From assembly GCA_965230755.1 (NCBI GenBank), contig CBDDLT010000005.1, positions 221,467-285,466 on the forward strand: a stretch of 64,000 bases of DNA, written 5' to 3'. The position numbers and the translations under genes were made by a program. Below, one piece after another: positions 1,706 to 7,278 of this stretch; the stretch's first letter is position 1, and every line of letters starts with the position of its first letter. A model generated the notes under the pieces. That model saw nothing but the letters and a program-made list of their open reading frames with translations. It did not search any database and was not told the origin of the DNA. This DNA is from Saprospiraceae bacterium (GTDB lineage: Bacteria > Bacteroidota > Bacteroidia > Chitinophagales > Saprospiraceae).

Positions 1706-1844
1706 ATCAATCAATGCAATCACCTTACTTTCTACATAGACAACAATTTCTCATAAATTATCTATAAATGCCTATATAACATCTATTTAACCCAATCAAG
1801 GTGCATTGCAAAAGTGTGCATAGGGTTTCAAATAATGGTTGTTT

Positions 1845-1865
1845 CGTTGGGAAATGGTTGGGAAA
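1845..1865. repeat. 21-bp direct repeat CGTTGGGAAATGGTTGGGAAA (copy 1); candidate integrase arm-type or recombination-enhancer site
   Basis: An identical 21-mer occurs at 7128-7148. Both copies are in the same orientation, each lying 50-140 bp inside one end of the element. The motif is internally tandem (TTGGGAAA tgg TTGGGAAA). Confidence 0.6.
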
Positions 1866-1899
1866 TTGATTATATTTGGAATGTTCAAAAGTATTCTAA

Positions 1900-3267
1900 A
1901 TGGCAACTACTTCTATCCGAGCAAAAGGAAAAGAAAAGAAAACATTCTATCTACGACTGTCAATAGAACGAGGCAGGGTGTATGAAAGAAGCACTCAAAT
2001 AACGATTCCTTCCGAATTTTACAGCACTAAGACTGGATTACCTAAAACTGGGGATGTCAATAGGCAAGTGATTATTGATAAACTCAATAGACTAGAAACT
2101 TTCATAGTCGAATTATACAATAAGGCCGATGACAAGGGTCTGATTGACTCGAAATGGCTAGGGAACAAAATAGCAGAATTTAACGGTAACAAGATAAAAG
2201 GCGAGGATACTTTAAAAGACAAGGTAACTGACTGGATAGATCATATAATTGAGAATGCCGAATACAGAGAGAATGACAAAGGTGGTTATGGGCTAAGTGA
2301 GGACAGGGTAAGGCAGTATCGGAATATCAAAACTCTTGTAAGTGACTTTGAAAAATCAATTGAAGAGATATTGCTAGTATCAAAAGTTGACTCATTGGTC
2401 ATCAAGGCCTTTGAAAAATTTATGAAGGAAAGAAAATATCAGGATCAAACCATTAAGAAAAAGGTAACTGATCTTAAGTCCATATGCAGAGAGGCCAGAA
2501 AAAATGGAGTCGAACTATCAATAGGGTTTGATCAAATCAAAGTGGGATCAGCAAAGACTTATGACGACGATATGGACGTAATTTATCTTAGTATTCCAGA
2601 AATTAATAAAATAAGATCTATTGACTTAGACGACGAACCTCTTATTAATGCCAGAAAATGGTTGTTAGCATTATGTTTTACAGGACAAAGAGGGATTGAC
2701 TTAGTTGGGGGTCGCAAAAATGACAAATTTTACTCATGTCAATTAATTAAAGATAATTTTAAGGTCAGACCTAATGGTAAATTGGCATTATCTATCCGAC
2801 AATCAAAAGGAAACAAACAAGTATTAATACCGATTCTTGGACCAGTCAAAGAAATGTATGAGAAAGGTTTGCCTTATCCTATGACATTACAGAAACTAAG
2901 AGGACACTTCAAGGACTTGGGCAAACTGTCCGGAATAGACACTCCCACAATGGGAGTGAAACAAGAGGTTATCCTAATAGGAAAAGAAAGAACCAGAAGG
3001 GGTATTAAAAAAATTAGACCTAAATATGAATACATGGCCACCCACATTGGTCGTAGATCATTTTGCACCAACTTTTATGGTATTCTATCTACAAAAGATA
3101 TAAAACGAATAACCGGACATTCTAAGGATGTTACCCTTCTAAAATACATAAATGAGAGTACCGATGATCACATCGATAATGCAGAAGAAGCCTACAACAA
3201 AATAATTGGAATGGGTAAGCAATTGGAATCAACCGAATTTTCTAATCATTTAAAAATAGCAAAATAG
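1900..3267 (+). CDS. int: Site-specific tyrosine recombinase/integrase (Bacteroidota phage-integrase family)
   Basis: 455 aa. The C-terminal catalytic region HIGRRSFCTNFY...ITGHSKDVTLLKYI fits the H-x-x-R ... H-x-x-x-x-Y box II with a terminal catalytic Tyr. A Lys-rich N-terminal arm region is present. It sits next to a tRNA-derived att repeat. Confidence 0.85.
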   Translation: MATTSIRAKGKEKKTFYLRLSIERGRVYERSTQITIPSEFYSTKTGLPKTGDVNRQVIIDKLNRLETFIVELYNKADDKGLIDSKWLGNKIAEFNGNKIKGEDTLKDKVTDWIDHIIENAEYRENDKGGYGLSEDRVRQYRNIKTLVSDFEKSIEEILLVSKVDSLVIKAFEKFMKERKYQDQTIKKKVTDLKSICREARKNGVELSIGFDQIKVGSAKTYDDDMDVIYLSIPEINKIRSIDLDDEPLINARKWLLALCFTGQRGIDLVGGRKNDKFYSCQLIKDNFKVRPNGKLALSIRQSKGNKQVLIPILGPVKEMYEKGLPYPMTLQKLRGHFKDLGKLSGIDTPTMGVKQEVILIGKERTRRGIKKIRPKYEYMATHIGRRSFCTNFYGILSTKDIKRITGHSKDVTLLKYINESTDDHIDNAEEAYNKIIGMGKQLESTEFSNHLKIAK

Positions 3268-3273
3268 AAAATT

Positions 3274-3630
3274 ATGCAAGAGATTTACTTTACAAGCCAA
3301 GGCACTTTCGCCCCAATTAGTCAGAAACTATTCATTGACAACGAAACCAAGGCAAATGAACCCTTTTTAATTACTTTGGAACAGGCTGCCCTAATGTTAA
3401 ACTTTGAATCAATTGAAGCCTTTGAAAAGGAACTTTACGAACGATTCATTCTCATGGGAAATAAAGACAATCGAAACAAACCTTTTCGTATCCATTTAGA
3501 TAATGGATTGTTCGCCCTCCAGGTATCCGAGTTTGTCTACCAAGGCAAGTTCAGGCTAAATTACAAGACGTTCATGACGAGTAAGGGCCTAGAATGGATC
3601 AGTGGAGAACTTGAAGTACAATCAAAATAA
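3274..3630 (+). CDS. Hypothetical protein (118 aa), island cargo
   Basis: ORF begins 7 nt after int and is co-directional. No recognisable motif. Confidence 0.45.
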   Translation: MQEIYFTSQGTFAPISQKLFIDNETKANEPFLITLEQAALMLNFESIEAFEKELYERFILMGNKDNRNKPFRIHLDNGLFALQVSEFVYQGKFRLNYKTFMTSKGLEWISGELEVQSK

Positions 3631-3665
3631 AAAGGCAAGACAAGGAATTTACGTCGCCAGCCTAG

Positions 3666-4574
3666 ATGAATGACCTCGATTTCTTTAAGATGGAAGAATT
3701 TAGTTTTAATAAGGCCTTAGAAGAATTTTTGACCAATGGGCAGAATCCAATAAATGAAGGTAATTACGCCAAGGCCTATATTAAAATGAGGTTAAAATTC
3801 TTGGAGTTTGGAAAGTATCAAAGATTTATATGGGATAGCAAAGATGATAACATTACTAAAATGTTATCGAGTATTGTTCAACGCATAAATGACATCAAAG
3901 AAGAAGTCCAAGAAAAGTGGGTTAAAGAACAATTAATCCGCATAGAACAACTTAACGCAATTCATGAACTACTTGCCTTTGAACAAGAATATAGTGATGT
4001 GTTTTTTTCAATTGGCACGAAGTACTCTAACAATAAGACCTATCATTTCTTTCCCGATGTAAGCCACTACACGAGATGGGAACCAGGGTATGAATCTATT
4101 AAAATTGTTCGAATCGGGAATAAAATAATTAGCAGAGACGGAAGAATATCAAGGGCCATCAAATCAAGAAACAAGCAATTGGAAAACGTTGCTCCTATTA
4201 ATTATAAAAAAACCATTGATCAACCTGAAGATCAGTATACACTAGAACATATAATCAGTCATAAAAATGTTACTGGTGTAATAGAAGAAATAAAGAAACT
4301 ATGCCAAGGTAAAAAGGGCAAGGATATAGCAATACTCTTTATTGCCTTGGACGAATTAGGTGTCATCCCCAAAAATATAACGTCAAAGAAGTTTCACGAT
4401 TCTTGTAAAAATTCATTTGATTGGGATATTGGTGTTCTTAGATCAATGACCAAATTCAAGAAAAGTTATAGATATAGTGAAGTTTATGATGAAACCGAGA
4501 TAACACCTGATGGGAAGGAGAAAGACAGAATAGTATCTGCCATATCTGCCATGTCTGCCACTAAAGAAAACTAG
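3666..4574 (+). CDS. Hypothetical protein (302 aa), island cargo
   Basis: Long ORF with ordinary coding composition and no recognisable motif. Confidence 0.5.
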   Translation: MNDLDFFKMEEFSFNKALEEFLTNGQNPINEGNYAKAYIKMRLKFLEFGKYQRFIWDSKDDNITKMLSSIVQRINDIKEEVQEKWVKEQLIRIEQLNAIHELLAFEQEYSDVFFSIGTKYSNNKTYHFFPDVSHYTRWEPGYESIKIVRIGNKIISRDGRISRAIKSRNKQLENVAPINYKKTIDQPEDQYTLEHIISHKNVTGVIEEIKKLCQGKKGKDIAILFIALDELGVIPKNITSKKFHDSCKNSFDWDIGVLRSMTKFKKSYRYSEVYDETEITPDGKEKDRIVSAISAMSATKEN

Positions 4575-4674
4575 TTCAAAGTTCCAATTTATTCCTCGGA
4601 ACTTCTTGGAACCTTTGTTTTGTGGAATTGAGTAGCATCCTCTCTAATTTTACTTTCAAATAAAAATTAAAGAA

Positions 4675-4956
4675 ATGGAAAGTTTACAATTTATTGGTAC
4701 ATCACCAGATGTGATTGTCCGGAAAATTCTAACTGGCGTAGATGAACGTCTAAATGACTTAAAGGATCAATTTCAGCCGAAAGAACCAGAGGAATACTTG
4801 ACTAGGAAGCAAGTATCTGAATTACTGCAAGTAGACCTATCAACTTTGCACAGATGGACTAAATGTGGCAAGTTAATTGCCTATGGCATAGGCAACAGGG
4901 TCTACTACAAGAGGACCGAAGTTGAACAGGCATTATTAACTCAAAATTCGCACTAA
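4675..4956 (+). CDS. Helix-turn-helix DNA-binding protein, excisionase/AlpA-like
   Basis: 93 aa. The motif LTRKQVSELLQVDLSTLHRWTKCGKLIAYGIGNRVYYKRTEVEQAL is typical of the MerR-superfamily HTH_17/AlpA excisionase-type domain found on Bacteroidota mobile elements. Confidence 0.6.
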   Translation: MESLQFIGTSPDVIVRKILTGVDERLNDLKDQFQPKEPEEYLTRKQVSELLQVDLSTLHRWTKCGKLIAYGIGNRVYYKRTEVEQALLTQNSH

Positions 4957-4958
4957 TT

Positions 4959-5306
4959 ATGACAAAAAAAATCCAATATACTTATACGTTGTCAAAAGAG
5001 ACAAAGACAACAAGACACTATTTAATTGACCATTCCGATAACGAGAATCAGGTATTCAGTGATAGGATTAGGATATCCCATAACAGGAAATTCAATAATT
5101 CACCACATGATTATTTTGTTCACGAACGAAACAATCCTAATAGATGGAATAAAACAACCACTACTGGATTAATGAGAACAAATAAACCTAATCAATATGA
5201 GGGTGATATAATAGATTCTCAAAAAAGGAAGCAACATAAGGTGCTGTTCGAATTTATTGGAGATACACTTTTAGTTGACGTTCACTTAAATTATTTCAGA
5301 CTATAA
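4959..5306 (+). CDS. Hypothetical protein (115 aa)
   Basis: Begins 3 nt after the HTH gene and is followed by a strong terminator. No recognisable motif. Confidence 0.4.
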   Translation: MTKKIQYTYTLSKETKTTRHYLIDHSDNENQVFSDRIRISHNRKFNNSPHDYFVHERNNPNRWNKTTTTGLMRTNKPNQYEGDIIDSQKRKQHKVLFEFIGDTLLVDVHLNYFRL

Positions 5307-5310
5307 AATA

Positions 5311-5345
5311 AAAAAGGGTGTACTGATTGGTACGCCCCTTTTTGT
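5311..5345 (+). terminator. Rho-independent terminator
   Basis: GGGUGUAC..GUACGCCC gives an 8-bp stem (one G-U pair), followed by TTTTTG. Confidence 0.5.
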
Positions 5346-5406
5346 TCAATTGTATTCTAAACCTAATTAGAATTACTCAAATATACGCCTTTTAATTAAG
5401 TATCAA

Positions 5407-6714
5407 TTGATAGATTATAAAGTAAACAAAACAGTAGACCAAGAGACCATAAATAAGGTATTAGATTTTTTTAATGATCAATGTATAACTCCTGAATATT
5501 ACGAAGTTCCCTCAACCGCCGATAAGCACCATAAAACTTCGCATGTATATACCTATTTGGACCAAGAGACTGTACTAACAAGATACAGTCATAAAGACTC
5601 GGGAGAATTGTTGCATGAATGCCTCTACTTTAATATAAAACCCCACTATCTCTTTAATAGCAATGCGCATAACGCCAACTATTTTAGTCCAAAAGATTGC
5701 ATAAAAACACTTAAAGACTTTTTTGGCCCATTTGATATTGACTATGAATTACTAGAACCCATTAAAATTGAATACGGCCTAAACTTCTACCAGCCTTATG
5801 AACCGGAGAAGGTCATATCTTTATCACCCTACCAAGGCAAAAACCGTCCTAGGTTTGATCTAGGAGATAACAAAACCGGATATCAGTATCACAAAAAGAC
5901 ACCTGGCAGAATCAAGCATTACAATACTTTTAAGTATTACTGTAAGGGGTTGCACAATGACTACCACCTTTACGAGTATTGTCATCGAAATACTTTGAGA
6001 GCAGAAATAAAATGCTATCAGAAGGAAAGAATCAAGAAGGACGGCATCAATTCACTTGCAGACCTTTTGAATGTAGAGAGTTATATTCCCTTAGTAATGA
6101 ATTTAAGGAATGAGTTTCGCCGATTACTCATTCTAGATAGGATAACCCCAATAGAAGAATTCAATCTCTCTAAAACAGCAAAAAATAGATTCGAAAAGTA
6201 TTTGCATTCAGAAACCTGGGATGACTTTTGTAATGATAGTTACCGGAATAAGTATGCCAATAATTATAAATCATATTTACGACTCTTGGATCGGTTCGAT
6301 GGGAATGTAAAAAACAATCTTACAGGCCACTTTGAAAACCAACTCCAAAAACTAGAAAAGTGTGCAAAATGGACATACGTTAATAGTCCAATATGCACAC
6401 CTACGGAATCAACCAACCAAGGCATTCAAGACTCGGATAATGGTATCTGTTCGGAGAGCATCAAACTGCTCCATTGGGATCACCCTATTCGCAAAAAAAC
6501 AAGAAATGATAAAGATAATCCTAGAAACAATCTAGCCAGTGGAATTAAGGCAAGACAAGAAAGATGTCAAGCAAGTGGTCAGCAATCACTATTTCCATTG
6601 GGTGAGCAAATCAGTAAAACCAAACTAAAACTACTAATGCCTTGGATTGGAACGAAGTATGATCTATTTCCTAGCCTTGGTATTGATAATCCCGATGAGT
6701 TTTTAAGTGAATGA
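5407..6714 (+). CDS. Hypothetical Cys/His-rich protein (435 aa); candidate replication initiator, by position immediately upstream of the iterons
   Basis: Long ORF with Cys/His clusters (CKGLHNDYHLYEYCHRNTLRAEIKCY; CAKWTYVNSPICTPTES...GICSESIKLLHWDH). It ends exactly where the iteron array begins. The function is inferred from position, not sequence. Confidence 0.5.
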   Translation: MIDYKVNKTVDQETINKVLDFFNDQCITPEYYEVPSTADKHHKTSHVYTYLDQETVLTRYSHKDSGELLHECLYFNIKPHYLFNSNAHNANYFSPKDCIKTLKDFFGPFDIDYELLEPIKIEYGLNFYQPYEPEKVISLSPYQGKNRPRFDLGDNKTGYQYHKKTPGRIKHYNTFKYYCKGLHNDYHLYEYCHRNTLRAEIKCYQKERIKKDGINSLADLLNVESYIPLVMNLRNEFRRLLILDRITPIEEFNLSKTAKNRFEKYLHSETWDDFCNDSYRNKYANNYKSYLRLLDRFDGNVKNNLTGHFENQLQKLEKCAKWTYVNSPICTPTESTNQGIQDSDNGICSESIKLLHWDHPIRKKTRNDKDNPRNNLASGIKARQERCQASGQQSLFPLGEQISKTKLKLLMPWIGTKYDLFPSLGIDNPDEFLSE

Positions 6715-6732
6715 AGAATACTTGCACCTCTC

Positions 6733-7079
6733 ATGCGTGCGAAGGTTTTTTACTAGTCCTAAACACGCACGAAGGTTTTTCTTAGGTCTATACGCACGTG
6801 CAAGGTTTTTTAGAAATCATAACGCATGCGGAGGAGATCAAGAGTATTTCGGCACAATAAAAAGTATGGGGCAGTCACTATACACACGCACGAAGATTAT
6901 TCTACGGTCACAATTACAACTCCTAAGAATTCTCTTACTCGTAAAAAGGAATGGGGGGGTCATATACGCACATGAAGATTTTTCTTACATATAAAAGGAG
7001 TGGGCAGCACTATTCCTACGTTGAGTTTATTGAAATCACTCATGCGCATGTAGGAGCAAAGATTTTTTCACGGTCACAT
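6733..7079. repeat. Iteron array of about 7 direct repeats (ACGCAYGnnAAGGTTTTTT and degenerate variants, with a TCTACGGTCACA/TTCACGGTCACA sub-repeat); candidate origin or integrase arm-site cluster
   Basis: Repeat copies start near 6733, 6764, 6792, 6822, 6886, 6966 and 7043. The first four are ~30 bp apart. The track ORFs 6707-6994 and 6951-7154 are simply translations of these repeats (RRFF...ARRFF). Confidence 0.7.
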
Positions 7080-7127
7080 TCATACACTGAGGAGTATTAT
7101 TGTATGAAATATCCCAATATGGCACAT

Positions 7128-7148
7128 CGTTGGGAAATGGTTGGGAAA
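7128..7148. repeat. 21-bp direct repeat CGTTGGGAAATGGTTGGGAAA (copy 2)
   Basis: Exact match to 1845-1865. Confidence 0.6.
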
Positions 7149-7204
7149 ATATAAAATAAAAAATCGCAAGCAATTGACATCCAACTACTTGCGATAATTA
7201 ATTG

Positions 7205-7278
7205 CGGTCCGGACGGGACTCGAACCCGCGACCCCCTGCGTGACAGGCAGGTATTCTAACCAACTGAACTACCGAACC
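7205..7278 (-). tRNA. tRNA-Asp (anticodon GTC)
   Basis: The reverse complement reads GGTTCGGTAGTTCAGTTGGTTAGAATACCTGCCTGTCACGCAGGGGGTCGCGGGTTCGAGTCCCGTCCGGACCG. It has a 7-bp acceptor stem, a GTC anticodon in the CCTGCCTGTCACGCAGG loop/stem and a GGTTCGAGTCC T-arm. CCA is not encoded. Confidence 0.9.

Follow-up and report, generated by a model that had tools for sequence, protein, structure and literature searches.

A one-sided direct-repeat array beside a putative Rep_trans-like gene in a small tRNA-integrated element of Saprospiraceae

The element and its genes

A 5.5-kb element (about 1709-7221) lies inserted at a tRNA-Asp gene in the window, by which we mean the whole 64,000-nucleotide stretch of Saprospiraceae DNA analysed here. 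The element carries six genes, all on the + strand, and brings a replacement tRNA 3' end and terminator with it. Its features are as follows.

About 1650-1686: terminator hairpin of the old tRNA, preceding the left att core
1691-1708, no strand assigned: left att core, a displaced copy of the tRNA-Asp 3' end (GCGGTCCGGACGGGAATC), identical to 7204-7221 at 17 of 18 nt
1844-1865, + strand: probable integrase arm-type sites of the int-proximal arm, two tandem 11-bp units, TCGTTGGGAAATGGTTGGGAAA
1900-3267, + strand: int, tyrosine integrase, 455 aa (Phage_int_SAM_5, 2.2e-8; PHROG 1 integrase, 1e-14)
3274-3630, + strand: KilAC/antirepressor (ANT)-like protein of phage type, a weak match
3666-4574, + strand: DUF6043 protein
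4675-4956, + strand: orf93, excisionase/BldC-like HTH_17 protein (PF12728, 7.9e-11)
4959-5306, + strand: orf115, conserved small protein, directly upstream of orf435
5407-6714, + strand: orf435, predicted Rep_trans-fold protein with a TTG start, putative nicking initiator or relaxase
6715-7125: array region, running from the orf435 stop codon (6714) towards tRNA-Asp(GTC)
7127-7148, + strand: probable integrase arm-type sites of the tRNA-proximal arm, an exact 22-nt copy of 1844-1865
7163-7195, - strand: terminator hairpin that the element provides for the rebuilt tRNA-Asp, a 15-pair stem followed by a T run
7204-7278, - strand: tRNA-Asp(GTC) (ARAGORN; Rfam tRNA, 67.5 bits), whose 3' end (7204-7221) is the right att core

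We take tRNA-Asp to be the target of the insertion because the 18-nt copy of its 3' end adjoins an apparent old terminator. In the excised circle the 22-nt repeats would flank the att core, which is the layout expected of arm-type sites. The TTGGGAAA pairs within them (occurrences at 1847, 1858, 7130 and 7141) are probable integrase arm-type sites, judging by their presence on both arms, their closeness to the core and their element-specific sequence. Tandem 11-bp repeats sit beside att in every element examined, many with two or three more before int, and they vary by element (TTGGGAAA, TTGACTAAA, CTGACTAAA, TTTGGCAA, GGTTCTCCAA and GGTGTAAAG). Hairpins equivalent to the terminator at 7163-7195 also occur in relatives.

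The gene content divides into a recurring backbone and probable cargo. The KilAC-like and DUF6043 genes (3274-4574) do not recur in related elements and are therefore probably cargo. Of the backbone proteins orf93 is conserved best, with 31-62% identity across loci; it matches the BldC family and scores 28.2 on the excisionase model TIGR01764, against a cut-off of 28.8. About half of the loci have an orf115 homologue in the corresponding position, and orf115 matched no family in Pfam, PHROG and further family searches. Family searches found no helicase, primase, conjugation, partition, capsid or terminase gene among the element's genes.

An open reading frame outside the element runs off the window start (1-1065). 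It encodes tandem repeats of about 23 aa of the PAEYETITEE type, then a short C-terminal tail, and is unrelated.

The repeat array

The DNA between orf435 and the tRNA-proximal att is filled with direct repeats, where the earlier note had located them. The array consists of the following parts.

6722-6751, + strand: unit U1, with a degenerate GTCA
6753-6781 and 6783-6811, + strand: units U2 and U3, with GTCA-like elements at 30-bp distance
6813-6850, + strand: unit U4, with a stretched tail
6852-7030, + strand: mixed part, in which U5, U5b, U6 and U6b are interleaved with a second motif
6852-6870, 6930-6954 and 6979-7004, + strand: second motif, (TTCTCTTAC-N4-)TAAAAAGGAATGGGG, three copies interleaved with the units
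6871-6901, + strand: unit U5
6902-6935, + strand: unit U5b, GGTCACA kept and core lost
6955-6984, + strand: unit U6
7005-7030, + strand: unit U6b, degenerate
7031-7068 and 7069-7104, + strand: units U7 and U7b, the latter degenerate
6707-6994 and 6951-7154: overlapping open reading frames over the array, neither with a Pfam match

Each unit opens with a GTCA-like element (starts 6756, 6786, 6816, 6874, 6907, 6959, 7035 and 7073), followed after 1-5 nt by a CG-rich core of 8-10 nt in alternating purines and pyrimidines and then by AAGRTTTTT. Pattern matching over the 64 kb placed the + strand AYGCRYR cores at 6733, 6765, 6792, 6822, 6886, 6966 and 7042, and the + strand AAGRTTWTT tails, or T-tracts, at 6742, 6772, 6802, 6893, 6975 and 7059. 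Five of the seven unit positions given in the earlier note stand as they were, and two, 6764 and 7043, need shifting by one nucleotide. The GTCA-like element at its 5' end makes the unit longer than that note described. What the note had read as an extra sub-repeat (CTACGGTCACA at 6902 and TTCACGGTCACA at 7067; ACGGTCACA at 6904 and 7070) is the 5' part of the next unit with its CG core decayed, and the palindromy it ascribed to GCACGTGC holds for unit 3 and not for the others.

Regular phasing is confined to one end of the array. Seven direct-repeat units are clear, the first four being set at 30-bp intervals and the rest unevenly. The proposed ~30-bp phasing is limited to these first units because the T-tract starts beyond them are spaced by 82-91 bp. 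U1 to U4 (6722-6850, + strand) also score 15.5-22.2 bits against the unit profile described below. The second motif, TCTTAC-N4-TAAAAAGGAATGGGG, is woven into the right half (6850-7010) and is found near att in the relatives L026, L129 and L047 as well.

The array is not a chance cluster. The composite pattern AYGCRYR-N0-14-AAGRTTWTT has six matches, all on the + strand within 6733-7067, and none elsewhere on either strand of the 64 kb. AAGRTTWTT alone occurs at chance level across the window (10 matches, 10.15 expected), and six of these 10 matches fall on one strand inside 326 bp, where about 0.026 would be expected (Poisson P(>=6) about 4e-13 by our own arithmetic). Tandem Repeats Finder did not report the array because its units are too degenerate.

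We rejected coding, RNA and single-strand-origin readings of the array, on the six-frame stops, the lack of Pfam and Rfam matches and the weak folding. Stop codons interrupt all six frames across the span, in line with the earlier note's view of the open reading frames there as artefacts. Rfam found no RNA family other than the tRNA, and single-strand DNA folding was unremarkable (z = -1.0 for the + strand and -2.0 for the - strand). No GC-rich hairpin with an adjacent inverted-repeat site occurs in 6715-7125, where the list of inverted repeats is unremarkable. A DnaA box, allowing at most one mismatch, is found neither between 1 and 9734 nor within the element, and no AT-rich block interrupts 6700-7150 (GC content 0.32-0.45); across the array itself GC content is 0.35-0.45, at or above the local average. 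The array is real, non-coding and directional.

The orf435 protein family

orf435 belongs to a large and unannotated protein family. A word-based search returned one relative, and an exhaustive HMMER search returned 456 representatives of 50%-identity clusters; those whose source name was looked up are all called 'hypothetical protein'. Neither orf435 nor any of 58 family members matches Pfam, PF02486 included, and none of 39 profile hits of the family carries a Pfam domain. A sequence-profile search of the PDB with the family gave no match at E <= 10, and Foldseek found no significant match in the PDB for the orf435 model.

The predicted fold of orf435 matches the Rep_trans nicking initiators, which start rolling-circle replication. 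Its conserved residues, D3 (at least 90% conserved) and the invariant E122, Y178-x-K180 and R198-x-E200, all lie on beta strands of the predicted model. Rep_trans proteins carry an acidic motif N', an acidic motif I, a YxK motif III with the catalytic tyrosine and an RxE motif IV (PMC5714925, PMC6499999), and in the model D3, E122, YxK and RxE follow that same order. We consider it likely, on the predicted structure, that orf435 is Rep_trans-like, which agrees with the earlier view of it as a replication-type protein. The model begins straight at the beta-sheet core and has no N-terminal HTH.

Two further sequence features mark the family. Residues 79-93 of orf435 (about 5641-5685) form a family-specific invariant stretch, KPHYxFNxNxHNANxF (H80, N84, H88 and N89); the Rep_trans motifs, of which five are listed (PMC5714925), do not include it, and it may be an additional metal- or DNA-binding feature. 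Most relatives carry a module of the form CxVTGxxI..QK..S..IS..GLK...IRN in their C-terminal 100 residues. The window protein and P0002 are without it, and the window C-terminus is different and modelled at low confidence.

Related elements and a circular relative

Related elements are widespread in Flavobacteriales. Searches for loci found none with orf435 as a single query, and a 58-sequence alignment was too diverse; a 10-sequence alignment worked, yielding 58 loci in species-representative genomes and 69 metagenome loci. Nearly all of the 58 genomic loci come from named members of Flavobacteriales. The backbone of int, then HTH_17, orf115 and orf435, is conserved across loci, its genes all pointing the same way. 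Of the genomic loci, 35 of 58 have a tRNA or tmRNA gene (Leu, Arg, Cys, Gly, Gln, Ala or tmRNA) downstream, on the opposite strand. Searching PLSDB plasmids and GenBank phages by tblastn, with orf435 and a typical family member, returned nothing but one weak partial phage match, and IMG/VR yielded no relative of the element.

One relative is a circle. L103, a 5,379-bp metagenome contig (Ga0208939_1009524), closes into 5.25 kb because its ends overlap by 127 bp. In it HTH_17 is followed by the orf115-like and orf435-like genes, then by 575 bp of repeat-rich spacer containing attP, and finally by int. Along the spacer come tandem 11-bp repeats, a pair of TGTTGACC, a terminator and a tRNA 3' fragment, then three TGTTGACCAA copies before int, and this layout matches the attP layout predicted for the window element. 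Members of the family therefore occur as free circles. On the 3' side of its rep-like gene L103 has tandem 11-bp repeats of its own (ATAACACCGTA, three copies; AAACAACGATA, two to three) in place of the window's unit.

The leaders of orf435 homologues hold conserved elements of a different kind. Just 5' of most homologues, in the gap between orf115 and orf435 (L006-L109), there is a GC-rich hairpin and after it a conserved box, (A/T)TTGTTCAAATGTT; many of the hairpin loops read TGTTCAA. In the window the hairpin is at 5316-5337, the sole one of its kind nearby, and looks like the orf115 terminator. We rejected it as a nick site, a terminator being likelier, because an A run and a T run flank it and the loops differ between loci. 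The window box (TGTTCAATTGTATTCTAAA, 5343-5361) has a near copy (TGTTCAAAAGTATTCTAAA, 1882-1900) directly before the int start codon; the two could be a shared promoter or operator of the int and rep-like genes. In many leaders, those of L007 (5840-5880), L030, L032 and L074 among them, a conserved stretch, GGCAACGCATACC, stands between the TTGTTCAAATG box and the start codon and might act as a regulatory RNA or leader element. This stretch is missing from the window, which has an inverted repeat, ATTCTAA..TTAGAAT, in its place.

The unit in related elements

The unit recurs, with position and strand unchanged, in about a quarter of related elements. A near-identical unit is found in L047 (Chryseobacterium) as four tandem units 26-29 bp apart. 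Tandem units also occur in L002 (six), L007, L026, L028, L038, L045 and L129, and single units in L032 and L052, among others. A profile of the unit (consensus ACGAAGATTTTTTTGAAGTCATTACGCGCGCA), run over 129 related loci and 9 kb of the window, gave 42 hits of at least 12 bits, about half of them outside its training set. All but one of these lie on the + strand downstream of an orf435 homologue, a compartment that makes up 21.5% of the searched strands. The exception, the only strong hit elsewhere, is on the - strand of L006 at 10525; it lies beyond that element's tRNA (8274) and perhaps comes from a second, neighbouring element.

The unit is distributed patchily. It is found in 23 of the 89 related elements with enough flank, and the remaining 66 contain no weaker hidden version; an iterated profile added two further elements only. 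The earlier note had named absence from relatives, or membership in a translated gene, as grounds for giving up its reading: 66 elements do lack the unit, and it is not part of a gene. More general searches gave little. Direct-repeat clusters of any kind just 3' of orf435 homologues are weakly enriched (12% of loci at the 5% level), and the 8-mers common to all elements at that place reflect A-rich composition only.

The unit behaves as a separate module. About half of the positive elements carry one unit, so that the functional entity is probably the unit and not the array. Cargo separates the orf435 homologue from the array in L047, L028 and L038, and the array from att in L026 and L007, which marks the array as a separate module at this end. 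Between the unit and att there can be 1-2.5 kb. It is far better conserved than the orf435 homologues, which share 26-35% identity with the window's, so that the co-variation with orf435 or int that had been expected does not appear.

Which protein binds the unit

Candidate binders are few. Only int, orf93, orf115 and orf435 are common to other unit-bearing elements, so the binder is one of these four or a host factor. Tests of whole-protein identity and of nearest neighbours associated every protein weakly with the unit, orf435 no better than the others. In a column-wise test that ignores kinship, orf435 was the sole protein to beat label permutation, none of 100 permutations attaining its best p of 5.6e-5; for orf93 67% of permutations attained the observed value, for int 9% and for orf115 16%. 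The associated orf435 columns correspond to window residues 147-153, where the window protein itself has no associated residue. The column association points weakly to orf435 as the putative unit binder.

A possible replication or transfer site, and its alternatives

We tentatively favour, as one that may well be right, the reading that the replication or transfer module of the element recognises the array in cis, and that orf435 acts there. The 5.5-kb element would excise from tRNA-Asp as a circle. The Rep_trans-like orf435 would bind the directional ~30-bp units, each running from GTCAY through an alternating CG core to a bend-prone T tract, and would nick one strand at the units or nearby. 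The nick would lead to rolling-circle replication of the circle, to transfer via a helper conjugation system, or to both. One unit would probably be the working site, and the window would hold an amplified, partly decayed array. We infer binding, nicking and their outcome in replication or transfer from several lines of evidence.

Three sets of observations argue for this replication or transfer site: the non-random, one-strand array with its steady position between the orf435 homologue and att; the Rep_trans motif order on the predicted orf435 strands together with the orf435 column association; and the L103 circle with the co-oriented backbone, as in rolling-circle replicons. There is precedent in related proteins. 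RepSNJ2, which is Rep_trans-related, has its origin just 3' of its own gene in a tRNA-integrated element (PMC13107129), and Rep_trans/MOBT proteins of integrative elements serve both replication and transfer (PMC5714925, PMC6499999).

Several observations count against it. Known Rep_trans/MOBT sites pair a nick site in a GC-rich hairpin loop with an inverted-repeat binding site (PMC9371924, PMC5714925), a design not found here. The unit is absent from 66 of 89 elements and so is not a universal family origin, unless the site was replaced repeatedly. Its conservation far exceeds that of orf435, the protein supposed to act on it, and its presence follows kinship of orf435 no more closely than kinship of the other proteins. 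Apart from the weak partial phage match, no homologue was found on plasmid or phage records.

A bolder form of the same reading, which we regard as possible though on the unlikely side, makes the ~30-bp directional unit the binding and nicking origin of an unrecognised Bacteroidota branch of Rep_trans. Direct repeats would there replace the hairpin and inverted repeat, and the family would comprise replicative integrative elements of 5-8 kb in Flavobacteriales, inserted at many tRNA genes.

The strongest alternative, though an unlikely one, is that the units are binding sites of orf93, which would coat them head to tail in an architectural or regulatory role (expression, excision or att accessibility) rather than at an origin. 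orf93 matches the HTH_17, excisionase and BldC families; lambda Xis and BldC bind direct repeats cooperatively. Its conservation, the best of the backbone, would suit a conserved DNA motif, and the interleaving of the window units with a second conserved motif beside att favours this reading. Against it, orf93 has no residue column associated with the unit, and its homologues are present in nearly all loci, whereas the unit is present in about a quarter. The distance of the unit from att in relatives (1-2.5 kb) speaks against a direct role in excision, for which the second motif, TCTTAC..TAAAAAGG, which keeps its place beside att, is the better candidate site. The 30-bp spacing also exceeds the head-to-tail packing of Xis and BldC, which is about 10 bp.

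It is quite improbable that the array serves an outside function, as a packaging signal for a helper-phage terminase, a partition or centromere-like site, or an array for a host factor. Direct-repeat arrays are a usual feature of pac/cos-adjacent and centromere-like sites, conservation of the unit is independent of the element's proteins, and the window element encodes a phage-type KilAC/ANT-like protein. That protein, however, is not conserved in other unit-bearing elements, and the element has no partition, capsid or terminase genes. Nor did IMG/VR contain a relative; a degenerate unit pattern run over it gave, among the matches listed, isolated single matches on viral contigs and no arrays.

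A theta-type iteron origin, the main idea of the earlier note, is very unlikely. Here an initiator would bind phased repeats and open an adjacent AT-rich region. The observation behind the idea stands: direct repeats at about 30 bp, with T tracts, do adjoin a replication-type gene, and the circular relative L103 has tandem 11-bp repeats at the corresponding place. Other signs of such an origin are missing. orf435 has the predicted fold of a nicking initiator, not of a winged-helix iteron-binding Rep, and matches neither Rep_3 nor another Rep family; the element has no DnaA box and no AT-rich stretch, and encodes neither helicase nor primase. Half of the unit-bearing relatives, moreover, carry a single unit.

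The other suggestion of the earlier note, a cluster of integrase arm-type sites, can be dismissed as highly improbable: the array does lie 130-480 bp from the att core in the window, but the tandem 11-bp pairs and triplets flanking the core fit far better, as a separate 22-nt repeat that is exact between the window element's ends and element-specific, whereas the ACGCRCG unit is on one arm only, is separated from att by as much as 2.5 kb in relatives and is common to elements whose integrases are 25-37% identical and use different tRNAs.

Comparison with known systems

The proposed replication or transfer site differs from each of the systems closest to it. Origins of the pT181 family (RepC/RepD/RepDE) combine a hairpin nick site with an inverted-repeat site and, in pT181 itself, lie inside the rep gene, whereas the window has direct, directional units of about 30 bp and no hairpin. 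The pT181 family consists of Firmicutes plasmids; the window element integrates, belongs to Bacteroidota and has no detectable PF02486 similarity.

Iteron-like binding sites near an origin are known from other initiators. The 'bind' locus of pMV158 RepB and the iterons of geminivirus Rep are direct-repeat initiator sites near a nick site or origin, and SaPI islands, which are excisable, carry iterons 3' of the rep gene. These initiators are HUH nucleases or helicase-type Reps, and their repeats are tandem at about 11 bp or flank an AT-rich region. The window's unit of GTCAY, CG core and T-tract is not known from the pMV158, geminivirus or SaPI repeats. The sites of lambda (P/P') and the CTnDOT arm sites are matched by the TTGGGAAA pairs (1844-1865 and 7127-7148), being tandem, about 11 bp, on both attP arms and element-specific; unlike them, the array is on one arm, conserved across elements and sometimes kilobases from att.

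Other parallels come from integrating elements. The MOBT proteins (RelSt3 of ICESt3, NicK of ICEBs1 and Orf20 of Tn916), like the one predicted here, are Rep_trans-type nucleases on elements that integrate and excise. MOBT elements use a single site for transfer and for rolling-circle replication of the circle (PMC6499999, PMC5714925). RelSt3 binds apart from its nick site, at a minimal consensus of TGTCAC (PMC9371924) that recalls the GTCAC of the unit as a resemblance only. In MOBT relaxases an HTH is found at the N-terminus, and their nick site, CT'AA, sits within a GC-rich hairpin loop (PMC9371924); the window shows neither feature, and, unlike MOBT elements, the window element is 5.5 kb long and has no conjugation genes. 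RepSNJ2 (Rep-Arvir, from the archaeal temperate virus SNJ2) is like orf435 in that its Rep_trans relation is recognisable by structure only and in its tRNA-integrated setting (PMC13107129). The SNJ2 origin is a conserved hairpin with a short palindrome and its protein has a MarR-like wHTH, whereas the window has direct repeats and a helical, uncharacterised C-terminal domain.

Significance

The array is a real, conserved, non-coding DNA element, and its proposed role is plausible. In the searchable literature we came across neither this element family nor a Rep_trans-like protein of Bacteroidota. Site and protein family alike lack annotation, occur widely and can be tested directly. Should the units be sites of orf93 instead, the array would be an example of HTH_17/BldC-like proteins organising mobile-element DNA. 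If the units are where orf435 acts in replication or transfer, they would give the first functional handle on a common, unannotated family of small integrative elements. Rep_trans-type initiators would then extend to Bacteroidota, with a directional direct-repeat origin design not described for the Rep_trans superfamily. From one gene and a 400-bp site it might also be possible to build a small replicon or a mobilisable cassette for Flavobacteriia, a group with few genetic tools.
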